Program-made: the position numbers and the translations under genes
Part shown: one piece after another, positions 4,777-23,612 of the stretch
Layout: the number at the start of each line of letters is the position of its first letter
Position numbering within the stretch: the stretch's first letter is position 1
Source: Candidatus Kerfeldbacteria bacterium
GTDB lineage: Bacteria > Patescibacteriota > Patescibacteriia > UBA9570 > XYC2-FULL-38-9
Direction: 5' to 3'
NCBI GenBank assembly: GCA_016182555.1
Contig: JACPGJ010000008.1
Location: forward strand, 220,272 to 284,271
DNA: 64,000 nt
The notes under the pieces: generated by a model
Database searches by the model: none
What the model saw: only the letters and a program-made list of their open reading frames with translations
Told to the model about the DNA's origin: nothing

Positions 4777-5937
4777 TTACTTGTCGCAAATATATTTGAC
4801 AGTAATGTTGGTGTTTAAACATGATTTTAAATAATTCATCAAACAATGTCTTACAATATTTTCAAACCAATACGTGTAAGGTAATTTTTGAGAAGGAGGA
4901 AATTTACGATTATCAATCATCATTCCTAAAGACGGATCGGTATCCCACTTACCAGCGCCATGCATAAACTGACTAAGATACATAGGCTCACCAGAATGCA
5001 AATAACCTGATCGGCTATTATAAATTGTAGCCAAAACATCTGGTAAATTTTTCCTTGTAATCTTTACATGTTTAGCTTTCCAATTTCCACCCCTCAAACA
5101 ACCCTTTGAAAAATCGGTAATAAATCTGATAAATTTCTGCTTTGATTTTTCAATCAGAATTTTATCTTGTTTGTTCACCTTCAATATCTCTTTCAATTGT
5201 TTTTCCTGCTTCTTTGACAGCTTTTTTGATGTTCCAAATAAATTTGAAAACTTTTCGCCATCAAGCGGATTATCCTGCTTGTTCAGTTTATAACCTTGCG
5301 ACAAGGTTTCAATTGCTGAAACTAAACGAATAAATACCATTTCGCTATCCATGCCAACCTCTTTAAGCGATCGTGCATAGTGATAGCAAGCTAGGATAAA
5401 GCTTTGATGTTTTTGGTTATTTAACTCCCGTATCGTATTCAAAAAATCAGATAATCCTTTTGCAAAATTTCTTCCGCCTTCACTAAAAATCCTGGGGTGT
5501 ACACCTTTTACTGTCTTTTTATACAAAAACTCCTGTTCCATTTTTATTTTCAAACCATGATTCGTCAATTCGCCATGATATGTTGCAACGATGTAAAATC
5601 TGCATTGAAAATAAAGAGAAAATATGGCGAGTAATTCGCCAATTATGCCATCTTTAAAATAGTAGCCCCTCTTATCTGCTTTATCATTGTAGCCGCCTTC
5701 ATACTTAGGATATTGAACACGTAACAGGTAGTGATAGAGGCCATTCTTGTCTTGCTCTAAGGAAAAACCACCGCAAATTAATTTTTTATTTTCATAATCA
5801 AGTACGCCAGGTATATAACACTCACTCGCGAACTCATATTCATAATAATACGTTTCATCACTGGATTCAGGTAATTTTTCCACATTTCTAATCCACGCCA
5901 TTCGATTGTCATTATGTTTATTTAATTCATTTGCCAT
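4777..5937 (-). CDS. hypothetical protein; candidate restriction endonuclease partner of the adjacent MTase
   Basis: 386 aa, no recognisable motif. Ends 22 nt upstream of the start of... i.e. immediately downstream (same strand) of the EcoRI-family MTase, the classic R-M gene arrangement. ATG verified at 5935-5937. Confidence 0.35.
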   Translation of the reverse strand: MANELNKHNDNRMAWIRNVEKLPESSDETYYYEYEFASECYIPGVLDYENKKLICGGFSLEQDKNGLYHYLLRVQYPKYEGGYNDKADKRGYYFKDGIIGELLAIFSLYFQCRFYIVATYHGELTNHGLKIKMEQEFLYKKTVKGVHPRIFSEGGRNFAKGLSDFLNTIRELNNQKHQSFILACYHYARSLKEVGMDSEMVFIRLVSAIETLSQGYKLNKQDNPLDGEKFSNLFGTSKKLSKKQEKQLKEILKVNKQDKILIEKSKQKFIRFITDFSKGCLRGGNWKAKHVKITRKNLPDVLATIYNSRSGYLHSGEPMYLSQFMHGAGKWDTDPSLGMMIDNRKFPPSQKLPYTYWFENIVRHCLMNYLKSCLNTNITVKYICDK

Positions 5938-5958: not shown

Positions 5959-7083
5959 TTATTTTTTCTTGTGTTTGATAAAAATTCGTTTGTACTGCTT
6001 TTTACCGTTTACATATGGCTCATTATGTTTTTTGAAATGTGGTAATTTGTATTTTTCATCAACTGCACCATTATCACTTGCTCCAAGAACTTCAAACTGA
6101 TCAGGGTTATATTTATCTAAAAAAGTAATCGGCACACCCATTACACCTTTGTAATCACTTGGTATTGAATCAGTAAAAGGCACTTCTATGGCATCATAAT
6201 TGTCATAATGATCGTACGACTCTTTGCCCTTTATTTCTTTGTGTTTGCTATATTTCAAATTCTCCCCCATGGTCATAAGTGGCAATGGTTGATGACGACG
6301 TCCGTGGTCAAGATTAGTAAGCCATAAACAACTATTAGTGGCAACAATTCTATCGCCATTTTCATCTATTCTAGCTTCTGTTCCATACAAATCGTAGGAT
6401 TTAGGTACAATAAATCCAGAAATCCATCTTCCCATTCCATTACCAAGCCATATTTCATTATTTTTAATTTTTTGAAATACTTCTTTATAAGTTATGCAAT
6501 TAATATTTCCAATAATTAAAAACTTTTTGTTGTAATCAAAAAGTTGCTTCACATACTCACGAAACAGACTGAACGGTGGGTTTGTTACAACAACGTCGGA
6601 TTGTTTAAGTAGATCTACACATTCATCGCTACGAAAATCGCCGTCACCCTCTAGGGGCGTCCACTCGTTATGTTTGTTTGCCTTTAACTGCTTGGCAACA
6701 TCCTTCAAGTTGAACTCACCATCGCCATCGATGTCGCCCACTTCGTTGATAATAAATTTGTTGGCATTTATCTTCGGACGCCCTTTTGATTTTATGAGAG
6801 TTTTATCATCACCAAACAACCCTAGTTGCGTGTTGGCTACGGGCGAGGGTTTGTAGCTGGTGGTGATAAGCTGTTTTAATCCAAGCTTGTTGAAATTGAG
6901 CACGAAATAGCGAAAAAAATTGCTCTCAAACGGATCGTCGCAGTTGCAATACACTACCTTGCCACGGAATACATCGGCGTTGTATTCCAAATACGCTTCA
7001 ATCTCTTTTTGAATATCAATATATTGAGTATAAAACTCATCATTCTTTGCTCGTTTTGCATTTGTAAGGTTATTGTTTGCCAT
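5959..7083 (-). CDS. N6-adenine DNA methyltransferase, EcoRI-methylase family
   Basis: N-terminal KNDEFYTQYIDI (DEFYT signature of the EcoRI_methylase family) and VVTNPPF (motif IV NPPF). ATG at 7081-7083. Confidence 0.75.
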   Translation of the reverse strand: MANNNLTNAKRAKNDEFYTQYIDIQKEIEAYLEYNADVFRGKVVYCNCDDPFESNFFRYFVLNFNKLGLKQLITTSYKPSPVANTQLGLFGDDKTLIKSKGRPKINANKFIINEVGDIDGDGEFNLKDVAKQLKANKHNEWTPLEGDGDFRSDECVDLLKQSDVVVTNPPFSLFREYVKQLFDYNKKFLIIGNINCITYKEVFQKIKNNEIWLGNGMGRWISGFIVPKSYDLYGTEARIDENGDRIVATNSCLWLTNLDHGRRHQPLPLMTMGENLKYSKHKEIKGKESYDHYDNYDAIEVPFTDSIPSDYKGVMGVPITFLDKYNPDQFEVLGASDNGAVDEKYKLPHFKKHNEPYVNGKKQYKRIFIKHKKK

Positions 7084-11587: not shown

Positions 11588-12595
11588 TTACCGAGCAATG
11601 AAATTCATAATAAGTGCGACCATGGTTTCTTTTTGTTGGGGTTTGCTTTGCGCGATCAACAATGCGAGTGCAACGAGTGCATTGTTGTTAAATTTTCGTT
11701 CACCAATTTTGTTGAATAATAATTTATTCCGTTCAAGAAAAAGAATAAATAGAAACGAACCAATGCGTTTATTGCCGTCAGTGAATGGATGGTCTTTAAT
11801 AATAAAATACAACAGGTGCGCCGCTTTTGCCTCAATGCTTGAATATAACTCTTTACCGCCAAATGTTTGATAGATGTTTCCCAAAATGGCATGTAACATT
11901 TCATTCCGTTCACGACCAAAAATTTCTGTGGCTTCTTTTTTGCGCATTAAACTTAATTTCAGCTCGTGTATTGCTACTTGAGCAATGTCGGAGGTCAATC
12001 GATAGGCTAACTTGTGTTTTTTCACCGGTGCAGGAATGTTTTCATCATCATACTGCTGCAACCATATCCACGTATCAGCGTACTGGGTAATAATTTCCAG
12101 CAAACCTTCAGATTCAGAACGGCTCAACTGTTGTGCATGCATGGTTTGTTTTATCAACGTTAGCGCATTTTCTAAATCGCGAAGAGGTGCTTGGGGTAGG
12201 CGGTGCTTATTGACCGTGAAACCTTTCACTAAATGGTCACGCAAAACACGCGTCGCCCAAATACGAAATTGTGTACCTTCTTTGGAATTTACTCTATAGC
12301 CTATAGAAAGAATCATATCGAGATTATAGAACTCAATTTCACGTTCTATTTCACGATTCCCCTCTTTTTGAACTGTTGCAAAATTTGCAACAGTTGAAGC
12401 TTTATCTAACTCAAGAGATGCATAGATGTTTCGTATATGTCTCGAAATACCAGACTTATCCACAGCAAAGAGTTGTGACAATTGGTTTAATGTTAACCAT
12501 ACTGTCTCATTGAGAATCTTAACTTCAACTGAGAGTTTCCCAGTCTTAGACTGGTAAATCATAATTTCGCCCGTGTTTTTTGGCATACGTTTCAT
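11588..12595 (-). CDS. RhuM-like N-terminal domain fused to a Fic/Doc domain (HPFTDGNKRIGSF)
   Basis: N-terminus IMIYQSKTGKLSVEVKILNETVWLTLNQLSQLF (RhuM). C-terminal HPFTDGNKRIG, the Doc-type variant of the Fic motif HxFx(D/E)GNxR. Track start at 12631 is TTG; the ATG at 12593-12595 is used. Confidence 0.65.
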   Translation of the reverse strand: MKRMPKNTGEIMIYQSKTGKLSVEVKILNETVWLTLNQLSQLFAVDKSGISRHIRNIYASLELDKASTVANFATVQKEGNREIEREIEFYNLDMILSIGYRVNSKEGTQFRIWATRVLRDHLVKGFTVNKHRLPQAPLRDLENALTLIKQTMHAQQLSRSESEGLLEIITQYADTWIWLQQYDDENIPAPVKKHKLAYRLTSDIAQVAIHELKLSLMRKKEATEIFGRERNEMLHAILGNIYQTFGGKELYSSIEAKAAHLLYFIIKDHPFTDGNKRIGSFLFILFLERNKLLFNKIGERKFNNNALVALALLIAQSKPQQKETMVALIMNFIAR

Positions 12596-12639
12596 GTGAG
12601 TTATATTATACACAACTGAATATTCAGGCAAATAGAAAA

Positions 12640-17937: not shown

Positions 17938-18336
17938 TTACTTTGCGTTTGGGTCGGTTTGGTGAAGACCAAAGGTGTTGCCTTCGGTGTCCAGGAAATA
18001 ACCTTGCCACGCCATTCCGGGCAGCGCAAATTTCGGCATGGCAACTTTGCCACCAGCGGCTTCAATTTTTTTAGCGATTTCATCAAAATTTTCTACTTGC
18101 ACAGTACACACAAATGCGTTTGTGCCACATTCCATCGGCGGGGTGTTTGCTGGGCGCTTCAATAACCCACCATTAATACCTGGTTCCGTACTGTCTTTCT
18201 CTGCGGTCATCACCATCCAATATTCCATTGTTGGCGAATCCCATTTTTCAATGTTCCAGCCAAACGCGGCGCGGTAAAATTTTGCTGCGCGCTCTACATC
18301 GTCTGCTTGAATTTCGAAGTGAGTGATTCTGTTCAT
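17938..18336 (-). CDS. VOC/glyoxalase-family protein
   Basis: MNRITHFEIQADDVERAAKFYRAAFGW... typical glyoxalase/bleomycin-resistance fold N-terminus. Confidence 0.6.
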   Translation of the reverse strand: MNRITHFEIQADDVERAAKFYRAAFGWNIEKWDSPTMEYWMVMTAEKDSTEPGINGGLLKRPANTPPMECGTNAFVCTVQVENFDEIAKKIEAAGGKVAMPKFALPGMAWQGYFLDTEGNTFGLHQTDPNAK

Positions 18337-18433
18337 AAGTGTTTTCGTTAATTATTTTTGATAGACAAATTCATGTTATACTTATAGAGATTAAATGTAA
18401 AGAAACTTCAATTGTATTGTGCAGAGTTATATT

Positions 18434-18658
18434 TCACTGTTTAATGCATAATATACCAACAGCTGCGGTCGTTTTTTTCCATTCATTCCAGAACTCTTCT
18501 CCAAAGCGCGCCATTCCCTCTTCTGCAATTTTGAGATCATATTTCCACTCTATTGTGGTAAAACCGGCTTCTCTGAGCGCTTGAGTATATGTCTCTTCAT
18601 CCCAATGTTTCACTATTATGCTGAGAACGCAAATGAACTGGTTATATGGTTTAAACCA
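18434..18658 (-). pseudogene. start-less C-terminal remnant of a class I SAM methyltransferase
   Basis: Stop-to-stop frame encoding ...WDEETYTQALREAGFTTIEWKYDLKIAEEGMARFGEEFW... with no start codon; it overlaps the 3' end of the kinase gene in another frame. Confidence 0.3.
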
Positions 18659-19179
18659 CTACGATGGATAATATTCCTTACAGATTCTTCGAGTGACCAC
18701 TCTTCGGGAATAATGCTCTCTTGTGTACAGTGAAGCAAGTCATTTTTTTTATACCATTGCCGCATCTCTTGCTCACCAAAACTATCTTTATTTGGTTTTG
18801 TCGCATGCCGTTTGAGTGTTGCTTCCAACGATATATCAAAATAAAAAAAGAAATTATTGTGTGGATGGATGGCTAATAATTCTTGAAACATCGGTTCATA
18901 TCGACCGCAATCAAAAATACCTTCCATAATAACATGGTAAGAATGGTTCAAACAATACAGAACAACGTCTTTTATCAATGCAATATTTTTTCCATTCGGA
19001 ATATCTTTTTCTTTCAACACCGTTCTGCGAAAATAATCTTGTTCAATGACTGCCATGGGCACAGCGGGTGTTTCTGCATCGCGAATGGCGTGAGCAACAG
19101 ATGTTTTTCCAGAACCCGATGGTCCGCGAAGAACAATCAGTTTTGTTGTTTCGACAATATTGTTAAATGTATGTTCCAT
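18616..19179 (-). CDS. P-loop NTPase/small kinase (AAA_33 / zeta-toxin-like fold)
   Basis: Walker A LIVLRGPSGSGKTSVAHAI near the N-terminus. Track start at 19185 is TTG; ATG at 19177-19179 used. Confidence 0.5.
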   Translation of the reverse strand: MEHTFNNIVETTKLIVLRGPSGSGKTSVAHAIRDAETPAVPMAVIEQDYFRRTVLKEKDIPNGKNIALIKDVVLYCLNHSYHVIMEGIFDCGRYEPMFQELLAIHPHNNFFFYFDISLEATLKRHATKPNKDSFGEQEMRQWYKKNDLLHCTQESIIPEEWSLEESVRNIIHRSGLNHITSSFAFSA

Positions 19180-19224
19180 TTCCAACTATGAATTCTTCTA
19201 TGTTCGTGCAATCATTATACACCA

Positions 19225-20250
19225 CTACTCTTTTAAACGATAAAACGTCGACCGCCCTTGACCATGTCGCTCAATAAGACCGCTTGCAACTAAATACCGC
19301 CAATCGAGAGAACGAGTTGACTTGGCTCGGTTCATTAACTCTGCATAGATTTTATCATTCATAGAACCATATTCACGTAAATAATCAAGAATAACACGAT
19401 GATGTTTTTTTAATCCAGATGCTGGTGCTTGAACAGATTTTTCTAATTCGTTTTTTACACGCAATAATTCATCAATAATGCCATCGGTAAAATATTCCAA
19501 CCACGGTGTAAAATCTACTTGCAAATCATAATAATTTCCACGCTCGCCAACAGTGGAAAAATATTTCGTTACATTGGCATTGTAATATTGTTCAAAACTA
19601 AACAGATGAAAAGTGTCTAACCCTAAACCGGCTAACAACAACTTTGTTGCTAAGCGAACCGTACGACCATTGCCATCCATGAACGGGTGAATTAACACAA
19701 ATTGTTTGTGAAAAATTCCCGCAAGTAATAACGCATCTATGCTGCCCTGTTGTTTTTGAATAAATTCTAACAAGTCGGACAATAAAGCTGGAACATCTTC
19801 GTGATCTGGTGGCCAAAAAATAGTTTGTCGTAATTTAGGGTCATTGACAAACACCGGAGCCAACCGCAATGACCCTATGGTTTTTTTTGATAACAGCCCA
19901 GTAGTCACCAACTTATGAATCGCCAAAATAGTTTTCATGTTGAGTGTGTTGTTGCCAGCATCAATGCGTTTTTTTAAATCCAACAATGCGGCATTATAAT
20001 TCAACACTTCACGTTCTGAATCGCGAATATGTGCCGGAGACTGTTTCAACAAACGCTTCACGTCAGTTAATGGTAGCGGATTACCTTCAATACTGGTCGA
20101 CGCATGAGATGAAACTTCGCGCGCAACACGCTCCATTTCAAATAGCACTACTTGCGGGAAACGGCGTTCATTGAGACTAGTCACAATTTGACCAATGTAC
20201 TTCACATTAGCTAATATTTTATTGGTGATTGTGTATTTTGGTTCAAACAT
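19225..20250 (-). CDS. Fic family protein (AMPylation-type Fic motif) with C-terminal winged-helix region
   Basis: HPFMDGNGRTVRLATKLLL matches HPFx(D/E)GNGR. Confidence 0.8.
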   Translation of the reverse strand: MFEPKYTITNKILANVKYIGQIVTSLNERRFPQVVLFEMERVAREVSSHASTSIEGNPLPLTDVKRLLKQSPAHIRDSEREVLNYNAALLDLKKRIDAGNNTLNMKTILAIHKLVTTGLLSKKTIGSLRLAPVFVNDPKLRQTIFWPPDHEDVPALLSDLLEFIQKQQGSIDALLLAGIFHKQFVLIHPFMDGNGRTVRLATKLLLAGLGLDTFHLFSFEQYYNANVTKYFSTVGERGNYYDLQVDFTPWLEYFTDGIIDELLRVKNELEKSVQAPASGLKKHHRVILDYLREYGSMNDKIYAELMNRAKSTRSLDWRYLVASGLIERHGQGRSTFYRLKE

Positions 20251-20263
20251 ACATATATAGAAT

Positions 20264-20296
20264 ATAGACGTATTTTAGACGATAATTAGACGATTG
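20264..20296 (-). promoter_or_regulatory. three direct repeats TAGACG(A/T) phased at 11 bp upstream of the Fic gene 19225..20250
   Basis: ataTAGACGtatt ttTAGACGataa ttTAGACGattg at 20265, 20276 and 20287, i.e. one helical turn apart. Confidence 0.4.
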
Positions 20297-20331
20297 TCAA
20301 GCACCCTAGCGGTCTTGGCGATCTTAAAATT

Positions 20332-20847
20332 TCATTTATTAAGCAATAGATCACTATACGAGTGTGTTATGAGCTGGTCATCTTGAATCTCGAATAATTT
20401 CATATACATTTCACATTGCTCGCGCAGTTTTTCTTCACTCATCTCCTCTGTGTCATCGATCGCTTCTATTTCAATAAAATATCCCAGCTCTTTCACGTTG
20501 TCGATATGAAATTTTACATTATTGATAAAATAAATTTCACGTTGTTTATCGACTACAACCAATGTCTCGAGCGCTGCGAGCAAAATAGTTTTTAGCGACG
20601 ATTCCGGTTTCGTATCATACAACATAATTTCTGCTTTTTTTGGACCAGCACTATTCTCCCGTTCATAAAAAATAAGATGATTTTCAATAGTTCCCTCTCG
20701 TAATTTTAACCGTCCATGCGGAACCACGAAATAGGTATCGATTTGATGATCCACACCGCGAAAATCTGCCTGCTGCGAACGAAGAATTTCGCGAATGCGC
20801 TGCTGATCATTGCACCGCGCTTTCATTTCAATATTCAAACAATGCAT
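20332..20847 (-). CDS. CYTH-domain protein / class IV adenylate cyclase (CyaB-like)
   Basis: N-terminal NIEMKARC (ExExK) and C-terminal REIYFINNVKFHIDNVKELGYFIEIEA align with the CyaB/YpAC-IV pattern [27 protein letters not shown]. Confidence 0.65.
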   Translation of the reverse strand: MHCLNIEMKARCNDQQRIREILRSQQADFRGVDHQIDTYFVVPHGRLKLREGTIENHLIFYERENSAGPKKAEIMLYDTKPESSLKTILLAALETLVVVDKQREIYFINNVKFHIDNVKELGYFIEIEAIDDTEEMSEEKLREQCEMYMKLFEIQDDQLITHSYSDLLLNK

Positions 20848-20894
20848 ACCTATTCCATAATTTTTTTATGCATACAATCATTATTACAAAGTAA

Positions 20895-21782
20895 TTATTT
20901 TTTCTTATCCATCACACCAATCTTCCAGACGCCTTTTTCCAAAAATGCTTCAATGGTTTGACGGTTGGCTTTATTGATGACATTTGAATGTGACAACTGA
21001 TTTTGTTTTGCATATTCCCGCAGTGTGATTATTTTTGCTCCTTCCAAATAGGCTAATCTTTTGTAATAACTATTCGTCAGTGCTTTACCGACGATGCCTT
21101 CCATGATGGTCGTTGTGCCGTTGCGGTCAAATTCTCGAAACGCTTCGTAATACATCTGCCGGTTAATAAAAGTAATATTGATCGGAACAAACCCTTCGCG
21201 TATCAGCAAATAATTATTCATCACTCTGCCAATACGACCATTGCCGTCAATAAATGGATGCGTATATTCAAACATCAGATGCAATTTGGCAATACGCGTA
21301 ATAATATGGTCATGACTACTCGCATAGTATTCTGCAAACATCGTTTCTAACCGCTCAATAATTTCTTGCGGCGCTGGAGCAATGTGGCTACCAACACGAA
21401 CATATTCATTCTCGCGTCGAAACCTGCCAGCAATATCATCACGAATGTTGGCAATCAACATCTTGTGCAATGACAAAATTATTTCCAGGTTCAACTCCTG
21501 TTGTTTTGCTTTGGTATTAATGTAGTTCACCACTCGCGCCAGATTCTTTGCTTCAAAAATTTCTCGCTCACTGACAAAACGATCCAAATCAATTTGGAGC
21601 AATATTTTTTCGGTTTCTTCAAGGCTCAACGTACTATTTTCAATAGCGTTGGAATTATACACTTGTTCAGCGACTTCCGCTTCATTGATCAGCTGAATAA
21701 GCGCATCTTTACCTACTGCAGCTTTATAGTAGCGTTTGCGTAGAGACGGTAATGCTTGAAAAACATAAATTTGGCGCGGCAT
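20895..21782 (-). CDS. Fic family protein
   Basis: HPFIDGNGRIGRVMNNYLL Fic motif. Confidence 0.8.
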   Translation of the reverse strand: MPRQIYVFQALPSLRKRYYKAAVGKDALIQLINEAEVAEQVYNSNAIENSTLSLEETEKILLQIDLDRFVSEREIFEAKNLARVVNYINTKAKQQELNLEIILSLHKMLIANIRDDIAGRFRRENEYVRVGSHIAPAPQEIIERLETMFAEYYASSHDHIITRIAKLHLMFEYTHPFIDGNGRIGRVMNNYLLIREGFVPINITFINRQMYYEAFREFDRNGTTTIMEGIVGKALTNSYYKRLAYLEGAKIITLREYAKQNQLSHSNVINKANRQTIEAFLEKGVWKIGVMDKKK

Positions 21783-21790
21783 ATACTTGA

Positions 21791-21833
21791 ATTATACACT
21801 TTTTCACGATTATGTCAACTATAATCGTGAAAA
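21791..21833 (-). promoter_or_regulatory. consensus sigma70 promoter (TTGACA-16-TATAAT) embedded in a perfect 13-bp inverted repeat, 8 nt upstream of the Fic ATG; third half-site at 21852..21864
   Basis: Minus-strand reading: TTTTCACGATTAT-agTTGACa-ATAATCGTGAAAA-agtg-TATAAT-tcaagtat-ATG. The -35 box lies in the spacer and right arm of the palindrome. Implies a leaderless or near-leaderless transcript. Confidence 0.55.
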
Positions 21834-21968
21834 TGGCATTAAAAATTCAATTTTTCACGATTATTTTCCCTCAGCTGCCTTCTGTAAAGCCGCAACATCA
21901 ATCTTTTTCACCACCACTTGTGCGAAAAAAATCTTCCTACTTTAGACAATATTCCAGATAAACTATTT

Positions 21969-23021
21969 CTACTCTACTTGTGACATGACATCCTGCACTA
22001 CCTGAATGACTAATTCAGGTTGATCCAAATGAATATCATGATTACTCTTTTCAGCAATCACTTGTTTGCTATTCGTTGAAAGTTTGAGCAGATCCTTTTG
22101 TGTCTTGGCTAAATACTCATCAACTTCTTTAGCTGTTGGCCCAGCAGTCTCTGCAAATGTGGCTTGTGCTGAGAGTACTACAATAGGGATATTCCCTAAA
22201 TTGGTAATAGAATTGAGCTCTTGCCAGACTTCATCATCTTTTGTGGATAATTCATCCCCTTCTGCTTTCATGACATTAAAGTAAGCTGGCCGAGCAATAC
22301 TGGCTAAATAGGGTTCATGGTATTCTTCAGGAAGTTTCTGTACAAAATCTGGAATCACTTTATCTCCACCGATCTTTCCTAGAATCGGTAGAATATTAAA
22401 AGTCGCTAATGTCTTCATGACATAATATTGTTGCCACTGTGCATTCTCTAAATCTTCAAGTGGTTTGAATGTATCAGCAGATACTGCAGCAGAATCAACT
22501 AACACTAATCCCGCCACATCCTGTGGGTAATATTTTGCAAAGATACGTGCATACATACCTCCCCCCGAATGCCCAACTAAGATATAGGGTCCTGTAATAC
22601 CCGCCACTTCTAGCATTTGCTTCTCTTCATCAACAATATTTTTACCTGTTCTGGGAGTTGTAGCAGGTTCACTCCAACCATAGCCTGAGCGATCAAAACT
22701 ACACACTCGTGTTGTTTTTGATAATTCAGGCTGCACTAACGACCAATCTAATGAGCTTCTACCGTTACCAGCATCTAAAATGATCGTTGGAGCGTCTGGT
22801 TGTACTACACCAGTACAGTATATGTGCATTTTGTGTCCGTCCACATTCACTAATTGCCCAGGTGCGGGAAAGTTGGTTGCAAAATTCTTGCTTGTTTGTA
22901 CTTGAATAATATAGCCAAGTACTAATAACACTACGATTAGAACAATAATTCCTAATAGCATAAATAATCCCATTTTTAACCACTTGCGTGGTGATTTATT
23001 ATGAGTATCTTTTGTATTCAT
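21969..23021 (-). CDS. alpha/beta-fold hydrolase with N-terminal membrane anchor
   Basis: Nucleophile elbow LVGHSGGGMYARIF (GxSxG); start moved to the internal MNTKDT to avoid a 37-nt overlap with padR. Confidence 0.65.
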   Translation of the reverse strand: MNTKDTHNKSPRKWLKMGLFMLLGIIVLIVVLLVLGYIIQVQTSKNFATNFPAPGQLVNVDGHKMHIYCTGVVQPDAPTIILDAGNGRSSLDWSLVQPELSKTTRVCSFDRSGYGWSEPATTPRTGKNIVDEEKQMLEVAGITGPYILVGHSGGGMYARIFAKYYPQDVAGLVLVDSAAVSADTFKPLEDLENAQWQQYYVMKTLATFNILPILGKIGGDKVIPDFVQKLPEEYHEPYLASIARPAYFNVMKAEGDELSTKDDEVWQELNSITNLGNIPIVVLSAQATFAETAGPTAKEVDEYLAKTQKDLLKLSTNSKQVIAEKSNHDIHLDQPELVIQVVQDVMSQVE

Positions 23022-23032
23022 AAAATATTGGG

Positions 23033-23572
23033 TTAAATAGATTGTAGTTTTTTTAAAGCTTGCTTGCACCAGGTCATTTCAGCTCCAGTAGCAAGTATTC
23101 CAAATTGTACGGTGAGTAAATTATATGGTTTTTTTGGATTATATTGTGGGTGTTGTAGAATTATTTTTTCAATTTGTTTTAATATACCATGCAACTGTTG
23201 CGTTTGCTCCATATACGCTGCAATATGTTTGATACTTACTTCCGTAGGAATACTGCTCGCAAAGAAAACTTTTAGTAATAATTCATTGCGTATCTTTGGT
23301 AAAGTAATTGGTGTTTGTAACCATTGTTTTAAAATTTTTCGCCCTTTTGCAGTAATAGAATATATTTGCCGTTGTCGGCCAGATTTTTGCACTGTTTTAC
23401 TAACTAATCCAACTTTTTCTAACTGTGCGAGTGTAGGATAGATTTGGCCATAACTTTCTGACCAAAAGTAACCAACGGTCTTCTGAATATTATTTTTCAA
23501 ATCATAGCCTGACTGCGGGTGAATATTTAATAGCCCTAATAAGACATACTGGGTTTTATTCTCTTTTTTCAT
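23033..23572 (-). CDS. PadR-family transcriptional regulator
   Basis: YVLLGLLNIHPQSGYDLKNNI...GQIYPTLAQLEKVGLV. Confidence 0.7.
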   Translation of the reverse strand: MKKENKTQYVLLGLLNIHPQSGYDLKNNIQKTVGYFWSESYGQIYPTLAQLEKVGLVSKTVQKSGRQRQIYSITAKGRKILKQWLQTPITLPKIRNELLLKVFFASSIPTEVSIKHIAAYMEQTQQLHGILKQIEKIILQHPQYNPKKPYNLLTVQFGILATGAEMTWCKQALKKLQSI

Positions 23573-23612
23573 ATATCTAGAAGATATATCATATTAGAGA
23601 ATTTGTCAAGAT

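Follow-up and report, generated by a model that had tools for sequence, protein, structure and literature searches.

Four genes that lie close together at positions 18434-21868 of a 64-kb stretch of a Candidatus Kerfeldbacteria chromosome (Candidate Phyla Radiation (CPR)/Patescibacteria; we call the whole 64-kb stretch the window) encode a Fic protein (FicA), a CYTH protein, a second Fic protein (FicB) and a P-loop kinase, in that order and all on the minus strand. We consider it likely that this is a variable accessory part of the chromosome in which four independent genes are neighbors, and that FicA and FicB are each a single-gene, self-repressed module. This reading rests on the lack of conserved co-localization of the four genes and on the finding that an operator-like element has been kept with each of the two Fic genes, independently of all neighbors. 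A preliminary description of the region had proposed a nucleotide-signaling toxin or defense module, with the whole cluster under one palindromic promoter.

The four co-oriented, tightly spaced open reading frames (ORFs) of that description are indeed present, with gaps of 47 nt (FicA-CYTH), 81 nt (CYTH-FicB) and 39-45 nt (FicB-kinase), and no terminators are predicted between them. Its family assignments (two canonical Fic proteins, a CYTH protein and a Walker A kinase) agree with the Pfam and NCBIfam matches: Fic at E = 3.9e-22 for FicA and 4.2e-16 for FicB, CYTH at 7.4e-13, and an AAA_33/PRK06762-type kinase. The same four-gene arrangement is found on L001, a Logan contig of one sequencing run that represents an independent assembly of the same organism. 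The FicA, CYTH and FicB proteins each match proteins from a 598,550-bp contig of a Candidatus Kerfeldbacteria metagenome-assembled genome at 100% identity. The region shows no compositional island signal, its GC content of 0.37-0.41 not being distinct from that of the flanks, and an Rfam scan of 18000-22400 returned nothing relevant.

The FicA promoter, TTGACA-16-TATAAT (21818..21791), matches 12 of 12 consensus positions, and the window has no other perfect consensus promoter, with 0.09 expected; 8 of 100 shuffles contained one or more. The window contains exactly three copies of the 13-mer TTTTCACGATTAT, which lie inside 64 nt and alternate in orientation (Table 1), such that the central half-site makes a perfect 13-bp inverted repeat with each of the outer ones. 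A search of the window for extra copies, which might have pointed to a regulon, gave only chance-level matches with two mismatches.

We aligned ~100 nt of DNA upstream of FicA from six loci of different CPR lineages (the window, L090, L091, L097, L196 and L197). The layout is fixed in all of them: CGTGAA at about -77, an inverted TTCACG at about -48, TTGACA at about -36, a second CGTGAA at about -26 within the spacer, then TATAAT and the ATG. The -35 hexamer is kept in five loci (L196 has TGGACA) and the distance from the -10 hexamer to the ATG is 6-8 nt in all six, while the DNA beyond the distal half-site is unconserved. Thus, the exact promoter within a palindrome that had been noted in the preliminary description proves to belong to an operator-like element shared by six FicA loci. 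The bases flanking the half-site cores vary between loci and tend to match among the three copies within one locus (ATAATCGTG in the window, ATAACCGTG in L090, AAAAACGTG in L097), as would be expected for sites read by one locus-specific protein; this sharing is imperfect, as L091, L196 and L197 mix variants. The center-to-center spacings of 20 and 31 bp, or about two and three helical turns, would place the three half-sites on roughly one face of the helix. Because only 6-8 nt separate the -10 hexamer from the ATG, a spacing kept in six loci, the FicA mRNA is predicted to be leaderless or nearly so, which agrees with the earlier suggestion of a leaderless mRNA.

FicB has a promoter of its own, TTGACA-17-TAAAAT (20300..20272), which matches 11 of 12 consensus positions. 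Over it lie three direct repeats (TAGACGT, TAGACGA and TAGACGA at 20265-20293) spaced by exactly 11 bp, a phased TAGACG triple that is unique in the window and was found in 0 of 100 shuffles. Of the three phased TAGACGA repeats in the preliminary description, the 11-bp phasing stands, but the 7-mer is exact in only two copies and just the 6-mer TAGACG is exact in all three. Five FicB loci (the window, L082, L085, L089 and L090) keep the arrangement TTGACA-(A/T)T-CGTCTAA-N-ATCGTCTAA-(A/T)-ATACGTCTAT, in which the repeats cover the spacer and the -10 hexamer, and the sequence upstream of the -35 hexamer is unconserved across the five. With this conserved promoter and operator-like element in front of FicB, one cannot simply place the whole cluster under the palindromic FicA promoter, as had been proposed.

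The genes do not stay together elsewhere. For the CYTH gene, we collected 80 loci from 80 species with 6-kb flanks, covering CPR, DPANN archaea, Saprospiraceae and other Bacteroidota, Balneolales, Ignavibacteria, Dehalococcoidia and others. In tblastn searches of these 80 loci with FicA, FicB, the kinase and the methyltransferase-like fragment that follows it, none was found near CYTH, apart from one weak Fic match ~4 kb away (L046). When the neighboring ORFs were clustered, the only recurrent neighbor was a GHMP-kinase-like gene immediately downstream of CYTH in 10 of the 80 loci, including L074, a Saprospiraceae metagenome-assembled genome; it starts 0-62 nt after the CYTH gene or overlaps it. 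The closest CYTH homolog on a long contig (P0002, 67% identity) lies between two-component system and DUF305 genes. For the kinase, 80 metagenomic loci (L099-L178, 554 kb) contained no Fic or CYTH matches; the genes that recur beside this family encode NUDIX hydrolases (8 loci) and a choline/aminoglycoside-kinase-like protein (6 loci).

FicB orthologs (74-85% identity) are found downstream of SecA, alone or in arrays of 2-4 Fic paralogs, with neither CYTH nor the kinase nearby. The FicA orthologs also lack CYTH and the kinase beside them, and their contexts are varied: ParE/Phd plus DpnI; a RhuM-Fic gene plus GIY-YIG; a RhuM-Fic gene plus a transposase and AbiEii; and GroES/EL. On L090, a FicB-like gene (85%) lies next to a FicA-like gene (82%), in reverse order, between PIN and AbiEi/AbiEii genes, again with no CYTH and no kinase. 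The only recurrent association is therefore that of Fic with Fic. The preliminary description had suggested gene neighborhoods as a check on its nucleotide-signaling toxin or defense module, and had named a failure to co-occur as the outcome that would speak against it: no CYTH-Fic co-localization was found elsewhere, with none in 80 CYTH loci, none in 80 kinase loci and none in ~10 Fic contexts, and for CYTH and the kinase that outcome is the one we obtained. Since the CYTH and kinase homologs are scattered and do not co-occur with the other genes elsewhere, the genomic comparison does not support a four-gene system and instead points to a chance neighborhood.

Table 1. Positions of the genes and of the promoter and operator-like elements in the window.
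Feature	Position	Strand	Remarks
Distal half-site ATAATCGTGAAAA	21852..21864	-	about -77 from the FicA ATG; exact copy of the 13-mer (TTTTCACGATTAT in + orientation); CGTGAA core in six loci
Central half-site TTTTCACGATTAT	21821..21833	-	just upstream of the -35 hexamer; TTTTCACGATTAT in - orientation; TTCACG core invariant in six loci
FicA -35 hexamer TTGACA	21813..21818	-	between the central and proximal half-sites
Proximal half-site ATAATCGTGAAAA	21801..21813	-	fills the promoter spacer; TTTTCACGATTAT in + orientation
FicA -10 hexamer TATAAT	21791..21796	-	FicA ATG 8 nt later
FicA, class II Fic protein by sequence, 295 aa	21782..20895	-	Pfam Fic
CYTH (triphosphate-tunnel) protein, 171 aa	20847..20332	-	Pfam CYTH
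FicB promoter/putative operator	20265..20300	-	TTGACA 20300..20295; three CGTCTA repeats 20293..20265; -10 hexamer TAAAAT 20277..20272 inside the repeats
FicB, class II Fic protein by sequence, SoFic-like, 341 aa	20250..19225	-	Pfam Fic
P-loop small-molecule-type kinase (PRK06762/AAA_33), 189/187 aa	19185/19179..18616	-	Walker A GPSGSGKT
Start-less C-terminal remnant, class I S-adenosylmethionine (SAM) methyltransferase	18613..18434	-	match to 8rdl, 5jdy

Both Fic proteins combine the HxFx(D/E)GNGRxxR motif with an N-terminal (S/T)xxxE(G/N) motif in the same polypeptide, the latter being the inhibitory motif by which class II Fic proteins are defined (PMC10628234). In FicA these are H175-PFIDGNGRIGR-186, which is invariant in 25 homologs, and S44-NAI-E48-N49, which aligns with the inhibitory helix of FICD; in FicB they are H188-PFMDGNGRTVR-199 and S51-TSI-E55-G56. 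By these motifs, both are class II, auto-inhibited Fic enzymes. We found no separate small antitoxin gene of the kind seen in class I Fic toxin-antitoxin (TA) systems (VbhT/VbhA, FicT/FicA): the inhibitory motif is internal, and no small ORF fits into the 39-81 nt gaps. The closest solved structure to FicA is FICD (E = 2.4e-21, residues 8-217), and those closest to FicB are 4rgl, 8uqu and SoFic. Among the PADLOC defense models, FicB matches SoFic (E = 1.6e-40, residues 47-338 against profile positions 60-350 of 361), and FicA matches SoFic over the Fic core (2.9e-27) as well as the candidate system PDC-S04 (5.8e-31). With NCBIfam SoFic equivalog scores of 55 and 40 bits, far from the cut-off of 550, the two are by sequence SoFic-like proteins rather than SoFic orthologs.

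The last ~55 residues of FicA are nearly invariant across its family. Modeled alone, the C-terminal 56 residues (a domain at about residues 249-291) adopt a beta-HTH-beta-beta topology, where HTH denotes a helix-turn-helix, at a predicted local distance difference test score (pLDDT) of 74.6. Foldseek matches to this model are weak (E >= 0.4) and are mostly winged-helix DNA binders (RepE, TubR, HlyU, SqrR, MarR); our HTH assignment is based on the secondary-structure topology and on the nature of these matches. The corresponding region of FicB (~285-340) weakly matches an ArsR-type HTH and the DIP2311 HTH (E = 0.002-0.007; 0.0022 for ArsR), and its C terminus aligns with SoFic-type proteins through to the end. 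Both C termini are thus tentatively predicted to be winged-helix-like DNA-binding domains.

FicA homologs from Komeili-, Roizman-, Falkow-, Moran-, Peregrini- and Parcubacteria (P0241-P0360) are 76-82% identical over the full length. Such identity across CPR lineages, combined with transposase, Abi and TA neighbors, suggests that the promoter-operator-gene module has spread horizontally and recently. Scans of IMG/VR viral contigs found no FicA relative and, for FicB, only distant Fic proteins, and so gave no evidence that either gene is phage-borne. The window contains a third Fic gene, encoding a 347-aa RhuM-Fic fusion (11588-12631, minus strand; Pfam Virulence_RhuM plus Fic); counting it and a FicB paralog (P0125, 79%), this small CPR genome would hold at least four Fic genes.

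Fic genes are also concentrated at one spot in related Patescibacteria. On L082 (4686-9505) and L089 (1561-9925), a syntenic position after the genes for ribosomal S30AE and SecA carries 2-4 different Fic genes, encoding Fic_N-Fic proteins of 380-384 aa, a Fic protein of 235 aa, FicB and a Fic protein of 352 aa, together with a HicA toxin gene; it looks like a Fic hot-spot. On L089, the 22-nt sequence ATCCATTAAAATAAYAYTTCAA stands immediately behind the stop codon of each of two successive Fic genes (5895-5916 and 7047-7068), and similar sequences occur up- or downstream of FicB in L082 and L085; none is present in the window. This sequence could be a terminator that the genes share, or a scar left by recombination of tandem Fic cassettes.

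The CYTH protein is a clear member of its superfamily (Pfam PF01928, 49.2 bits against a cut-off of 23.2), but with TIGR00318 (cyaB) it scores 44.9 bits, under the equivalog cut-off of 57.95. In place of the usual ExExK motif it has N5-I-E7-M-K9, with the Asn aligned to E10 of the class IV adenylate cyclase (AC-IV) YpAC-IV, and this Asn is found in at least 90% of 23 aligned family members. The invariant residues of the family include E7, K9, R46, K48, R50, E55, K101, R103, E104, E126 and E128. The preliminary description had pointed to the catalytic acidic residues as a check on its putative cyclase: most tunnel residues are conserved (E7, E126/E128), but the first Glu of ExExK is Asn. Against the PDB, the family profile matches 2dc4, an uncharacterized Pyrococcus protein, at 3e-11, YpAC-IV at 2e-10 and SaTTM at 5e-6. 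SaTTM, the characterized archaeal member of the CYTH family's parental cluster, is a triphosphatase; according to the same paper, archaeal CYTH proteins carry the annotation "adenylate cyclase" without support, and in the published network the true AC-IV enzymes make up a small bacterial cluster of their own (PMC8233210). Given the NxExK motif, the TIGR00318 score and this literature, cyclic AMP (cAMP) synthesis, or any other nucleotide-generating role such as the CyaB-like one first proposed, is not established from the sequence, and an activity of the triphosphatase type is no less likely than that of a cyclase. As a more general caution, "class IV adenylate cyclase" labels in CPR and DPANN genomes are not evidence of cAMP signaling.

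The family is large (6,707 proteins at E <= 0.001 among 6,762 candidates scored, with best matches at 60-69% identity). Its NxExK subfamily is ~55-69% identical to the window protein across CPR, DPANN, Saprospiraceae, Balneolales, Ignavibacteria, Dehalococcoidia and others, a patchy, cross-domain distribution (loci L002-L081) with unusually high identity. As the 47-nt FicA-CYTH gap contains no predicted strong promoter or terminator, CYTH may be transcribed by read-through from the FicA promoter in this genome. Given that the cluster is not conserved, we regard its placement behind FicA as an accident.

The kinase is intact. Its Walker A motif (G19-x-S21-G-x-G24-K25) is invariant and the conserved D, R and W positions of the family alignment are present; the likely start is the ATG at 19179, which an independent gene call also used. 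It scores marginally above the cut-off for NF005255 (140.8 bits against 140) and below those for NF005252 (188.8 against 258) and the Pfam zeta-toxin model (20.8 against 22.3). Members of the family are rare, as 1.8 billion proteins yielded 1,060 representatives at E <= 0.001. Several homologs (P0366, P0367, P0372, P0376, P0381, P0394 and P0396) are fusions to NUDIX, GNAT or SAM-methyltransferase domains, and in seven of the eight loci with a NUDIX gene that gene lies ~44-74 nt downstream of the kinase homolog. These links hint at a small-molecule or nucleotide substrate for the family.

Beginning 2 nt past the kinase stop, the start-less ORF had no Pfam match on its own but aligns to residues 189-241 of the 244 of the ToxA methyltransferase 8rdl (E = 1e-5) and also to 5jdy; ~190 N-terminal residues are missing. 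This alignment bears out the earlier identification of a start-less methyltransferase C-terminal fragment, which by sequence is a pseudogene fragment. We also considered whether it is the remnant of a kinase-methyltransferase fusion of the P0367 and P0381 type, and rejected this, as it has no similarity to those and is ToxA-type instead. It marks a deletion, insertion or rearrangement border, consistent with the earlier proposal that the cluster was inserted into or next to an older gene. On the other side of the cluster, directly upstream, a PadR-family regulator gene (23572..23033, minus strand) overlaps the start of an alpha/beta-hydrolase gene (23069..21969, minus strand) by 37 nt and is preceded by a promoter-like TTGACA-17-TATCTT (23609..23581); the two probably form a regulator-enzyme pair.

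In the mechanism that we propose, each Fic module would consist of a near-consensus sigma-70 promoter, operator repeats that overlap its -35 hexamer and spacer (FicA) or its spacer and -10 hexamer (FicB), and a class II Fic enzyme with a winged-helix-like C-terminal domain. This domain would bind its own operator, FicA on three half-sites and FicB on three direct repeats presented on one face of the DNA, and would thereby keep its own transcription very low, with the inhibitory glutamate holding the residual enzyme off. On a trigger, for instance infection by a phage, stress or the loss of DNA binding, the enzyme would then AMPylate a cellular target and growth would be arrested, similar to SoFic-type abortive infection. 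The CYTH protein comes from a triphosphate-tunnel subfamily that is widespread and stands alone, and it is more probably a triphosphatase than a proven cyclase; its gene would lie downstream of FicA by chance; the kinase represents a rare PRK06762-type family that is elsewhere paired or fused with NUDIX, GNAT and methyltransferase partners; and the truncated methyltransferase tail would mark the rearrangement that made the juxtaposition.

Several points weigh against this account. Self-repression is argued from conservation and from analogy with CccR (see below). The C-terminal domain of FicA had no match in Pfam or PDB sequence searches, its fold matches are non-significant (best E = 0.4), and the full-length FicA model is poor (pLDDT 48.9), owing to a shallow alignment at 76-82% identity. 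With no terminators predicted, read-through co-transcription of the genes is possible in this genome. In two related genomes (the window and L090), FicA and FicB lie side by side or nearly so, which could reflect a functional pairing, and the sample of Fic neighborhoods is small, at ~6 distinct contexts for FicA and ~4 for FicB.

The idea of a functional pairing can be widened to a set of interacting paralogs (an AMPylase/deAMPylase pair or cross-regulating toxins) made up of FicA, FicB and perhaps the RhuM-Fic protein encoded 9 kb away, with CYTH and the kinase as bystanders. Besides the two near-adjacent pairs, the 2-4-gene Fic arrays around FicB in L082 and L089 fit such a set, as do the RhuM-Fic genes directly upstream of FicA orthologs in L097 and L196 together with the one in the window. 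However, FicA has no other Fic gene in the examined regions of L091-L096 and L197-L199, FicB is alone in L085-L088, gene order and partners vary by locus, and the two genes have private operators of unrelated sequence; clustering of defense and toxin genes in islands is also expected without any functional interaction. We therefore consider this unlikely, although it is the strongest of the competing explanations. Somewhat less probable still is that the Fic genes encode housekeeping regulators that reversibly AMPylate a target such as EF-Tu, GyrB/ParE or a chaperone, with the operators serving only homeostatic autoregulation. The identity of 76-82% across CPR lineages, the similarity of FicA to the bifunctional FICD, the FicA context directly upstream of GroES/EL and the lack of close relatives among IMG/VR viral contigs would all suit such a role, and a preprint reports that SoFic both AMPylates and deAMPylates EF-Tu (bioRxiv 10.64898/2026.07.09.737422). 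Yet genomic position is highly variable, the recurrent TA, Abi, restriction and transposase neighbors point to mobility, the high identity across deep CPR lineages is easier to reconcile with horizontal spread than with vertical descent, and both proteins match PADLOC defense models.

The least probable explanation in our view is the original one, an operon-like nucleotide-signaling toxin or defense system in which CYTH would make a signal, the kinase would modify the signal or a target, and the Fic proteins would be effectors under the palindromic operator. Co-orientation, the close spacing with no predicted terminators, the recurrence of the arrangement on L001 and the matches of the Fic proteins to defense-system models are what speak for it, the L001 contig being an assembly of the same organism. 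The neighborhood analysis largely refutes it, and the separate, conserved FicB promoter and operator-like element, the failure of CYTH and the kinase to give significant PADLOC matches and the CYTH evidence above (the sub-cut-off CyaB score, the NxExK motif and the triphosphatase activity of SaTTM, with the strict cyclases in a small cluster apart) all add to the case against it. A local variant is that the juxtaposition is functional here, with CYTH (perhaps also FicB and the kinase) wired, for want of a terminator, to the auto-repressed, leaderless FicA unit so that turnover of ATP or triphosphate by CYTH and the kinase would tune AMPylation, or, in a milder form, that a FicA/FicB/RhuM-Fic network clusters in CPR. 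We rate this as improbable, on a par with the housekeeping role; if true, it would be a newly assembled nucleotide-linked toxin or defense module.

With independent genes and two self-contained Fic modules as the preferred reading, a false lead is removed, as no Fic-CYTH-kinase signaling system is supported here, and two widespread CPR Fic families can be pictured as self-repressed single-gene modules. FicA, with ~77% identity, three half-sites, a consensus promoter and a predicted leaderless start, would make a clean model for how potentially toxic AMPylases are silenced in tiny, host-dependent bacteria, and it offers a ready-made candidate operator/repressor pair from an uncultivated phylum. 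Its conservation and operator architecture make a tidy system rather than a new principle.

The bystander genes have recognizable relatives. The CYTH protein shares its fold family with CyaB-type AC-IV enzymes and archaeal triphosphate tunnel metalloenzymes (YpAC-IV, 3n0y; PH1320, 2dc4; SaTTM, 7ns8) and keeps E7, K9, R46/K48/R50 and E126/E128, but differs from them in the Asn at the first ExExK position and in its TIGR00318 score below the cut-off. The kinase has the Walker A motif and the D, R and W positions in common with the PRK06762/AAA_33 kinases, which belong to the fold group of zeta-toxin and chloramphenicol phosphotransferase; that family is annotated only as "hypothetical protein", and the window kinase falls short of the zeta-toxin Pfam model and has no epsilon-like antitoxin beside it. 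FicA resembles FICD/HYPE in that the TxxxEG-type inhibitory helix and the Fic motif align; FICD, however, is a eukaryotic membrane protein of the endoplasmic reticulum with tetratricopeptide (TPR) repeats and no DNA-binding domain, whereas FicA lacks TPR repeats as well as a membrane anchor.

SoFic, a class 2 Fic protein with a C-terminal domain, works on its own as an anti-phage system of one protein and is toxic on expression (PMC12249575; bioRxiv 10.1101/2022.05.11.491447), and FicB matches its PADLOC model nearly end to end. FicA and FicB differ from it in scoring far below the NCBIfam equivalog cut-off and in their CPR host, and a defense role for them is suggested by sequence similarity. 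The anti-Sofic gene AS1 encodes 47 aa (PMC12249575); downstream of FicA and FicB in the window, where the gaps are 39-47 nt, no AS1-like small ORF is present. A 44-aa ORF 94 nt after the FicB ortholog in L085-L088 (L085 7126-7260) was considered as an AS1-like antitoxin and rejected, as it is unconserved in the window and the other FicB loci; its product is hydrophobic and probably a membrane peptide.

The best precedent for the proposed mechanism is CccR of Yersinia pseudotuberculosis, a class II Fic protein (SxxxEG) with a C-terminal HTH; it acts as a repressor at its own promoter, by way of palindromes close to the -35 and -10 hexamers (PMC9755527). In CbFic2, DNA binding modulates Fic activity (PMC10628234). 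CccR is a type VI secretion system effector of ~380 aa, whereas FicA is a 295-aa protein with a small C-terminal domain without Pfam or PDB sequence matches, and no secretion context was seen for FicA or FicB. The arrangement of the sites also differs: the -35 hexamer of FicA is flanked by two of its three half-sites and its start is probably leaderless, and FicB has three direct repeats instead of a palindrome. Operator binding by FicA and FicB would follow by analogy, as they appear to share the domain logic of CccR (their C-terminal domains being predicted) and its operator repeats overlapping the gene's own core promoter. In agreement with this likeness, a repeated or palindromic element over the gene's own -35 or -10 hexamer is kept with FicA in six loci and with FicB in five.

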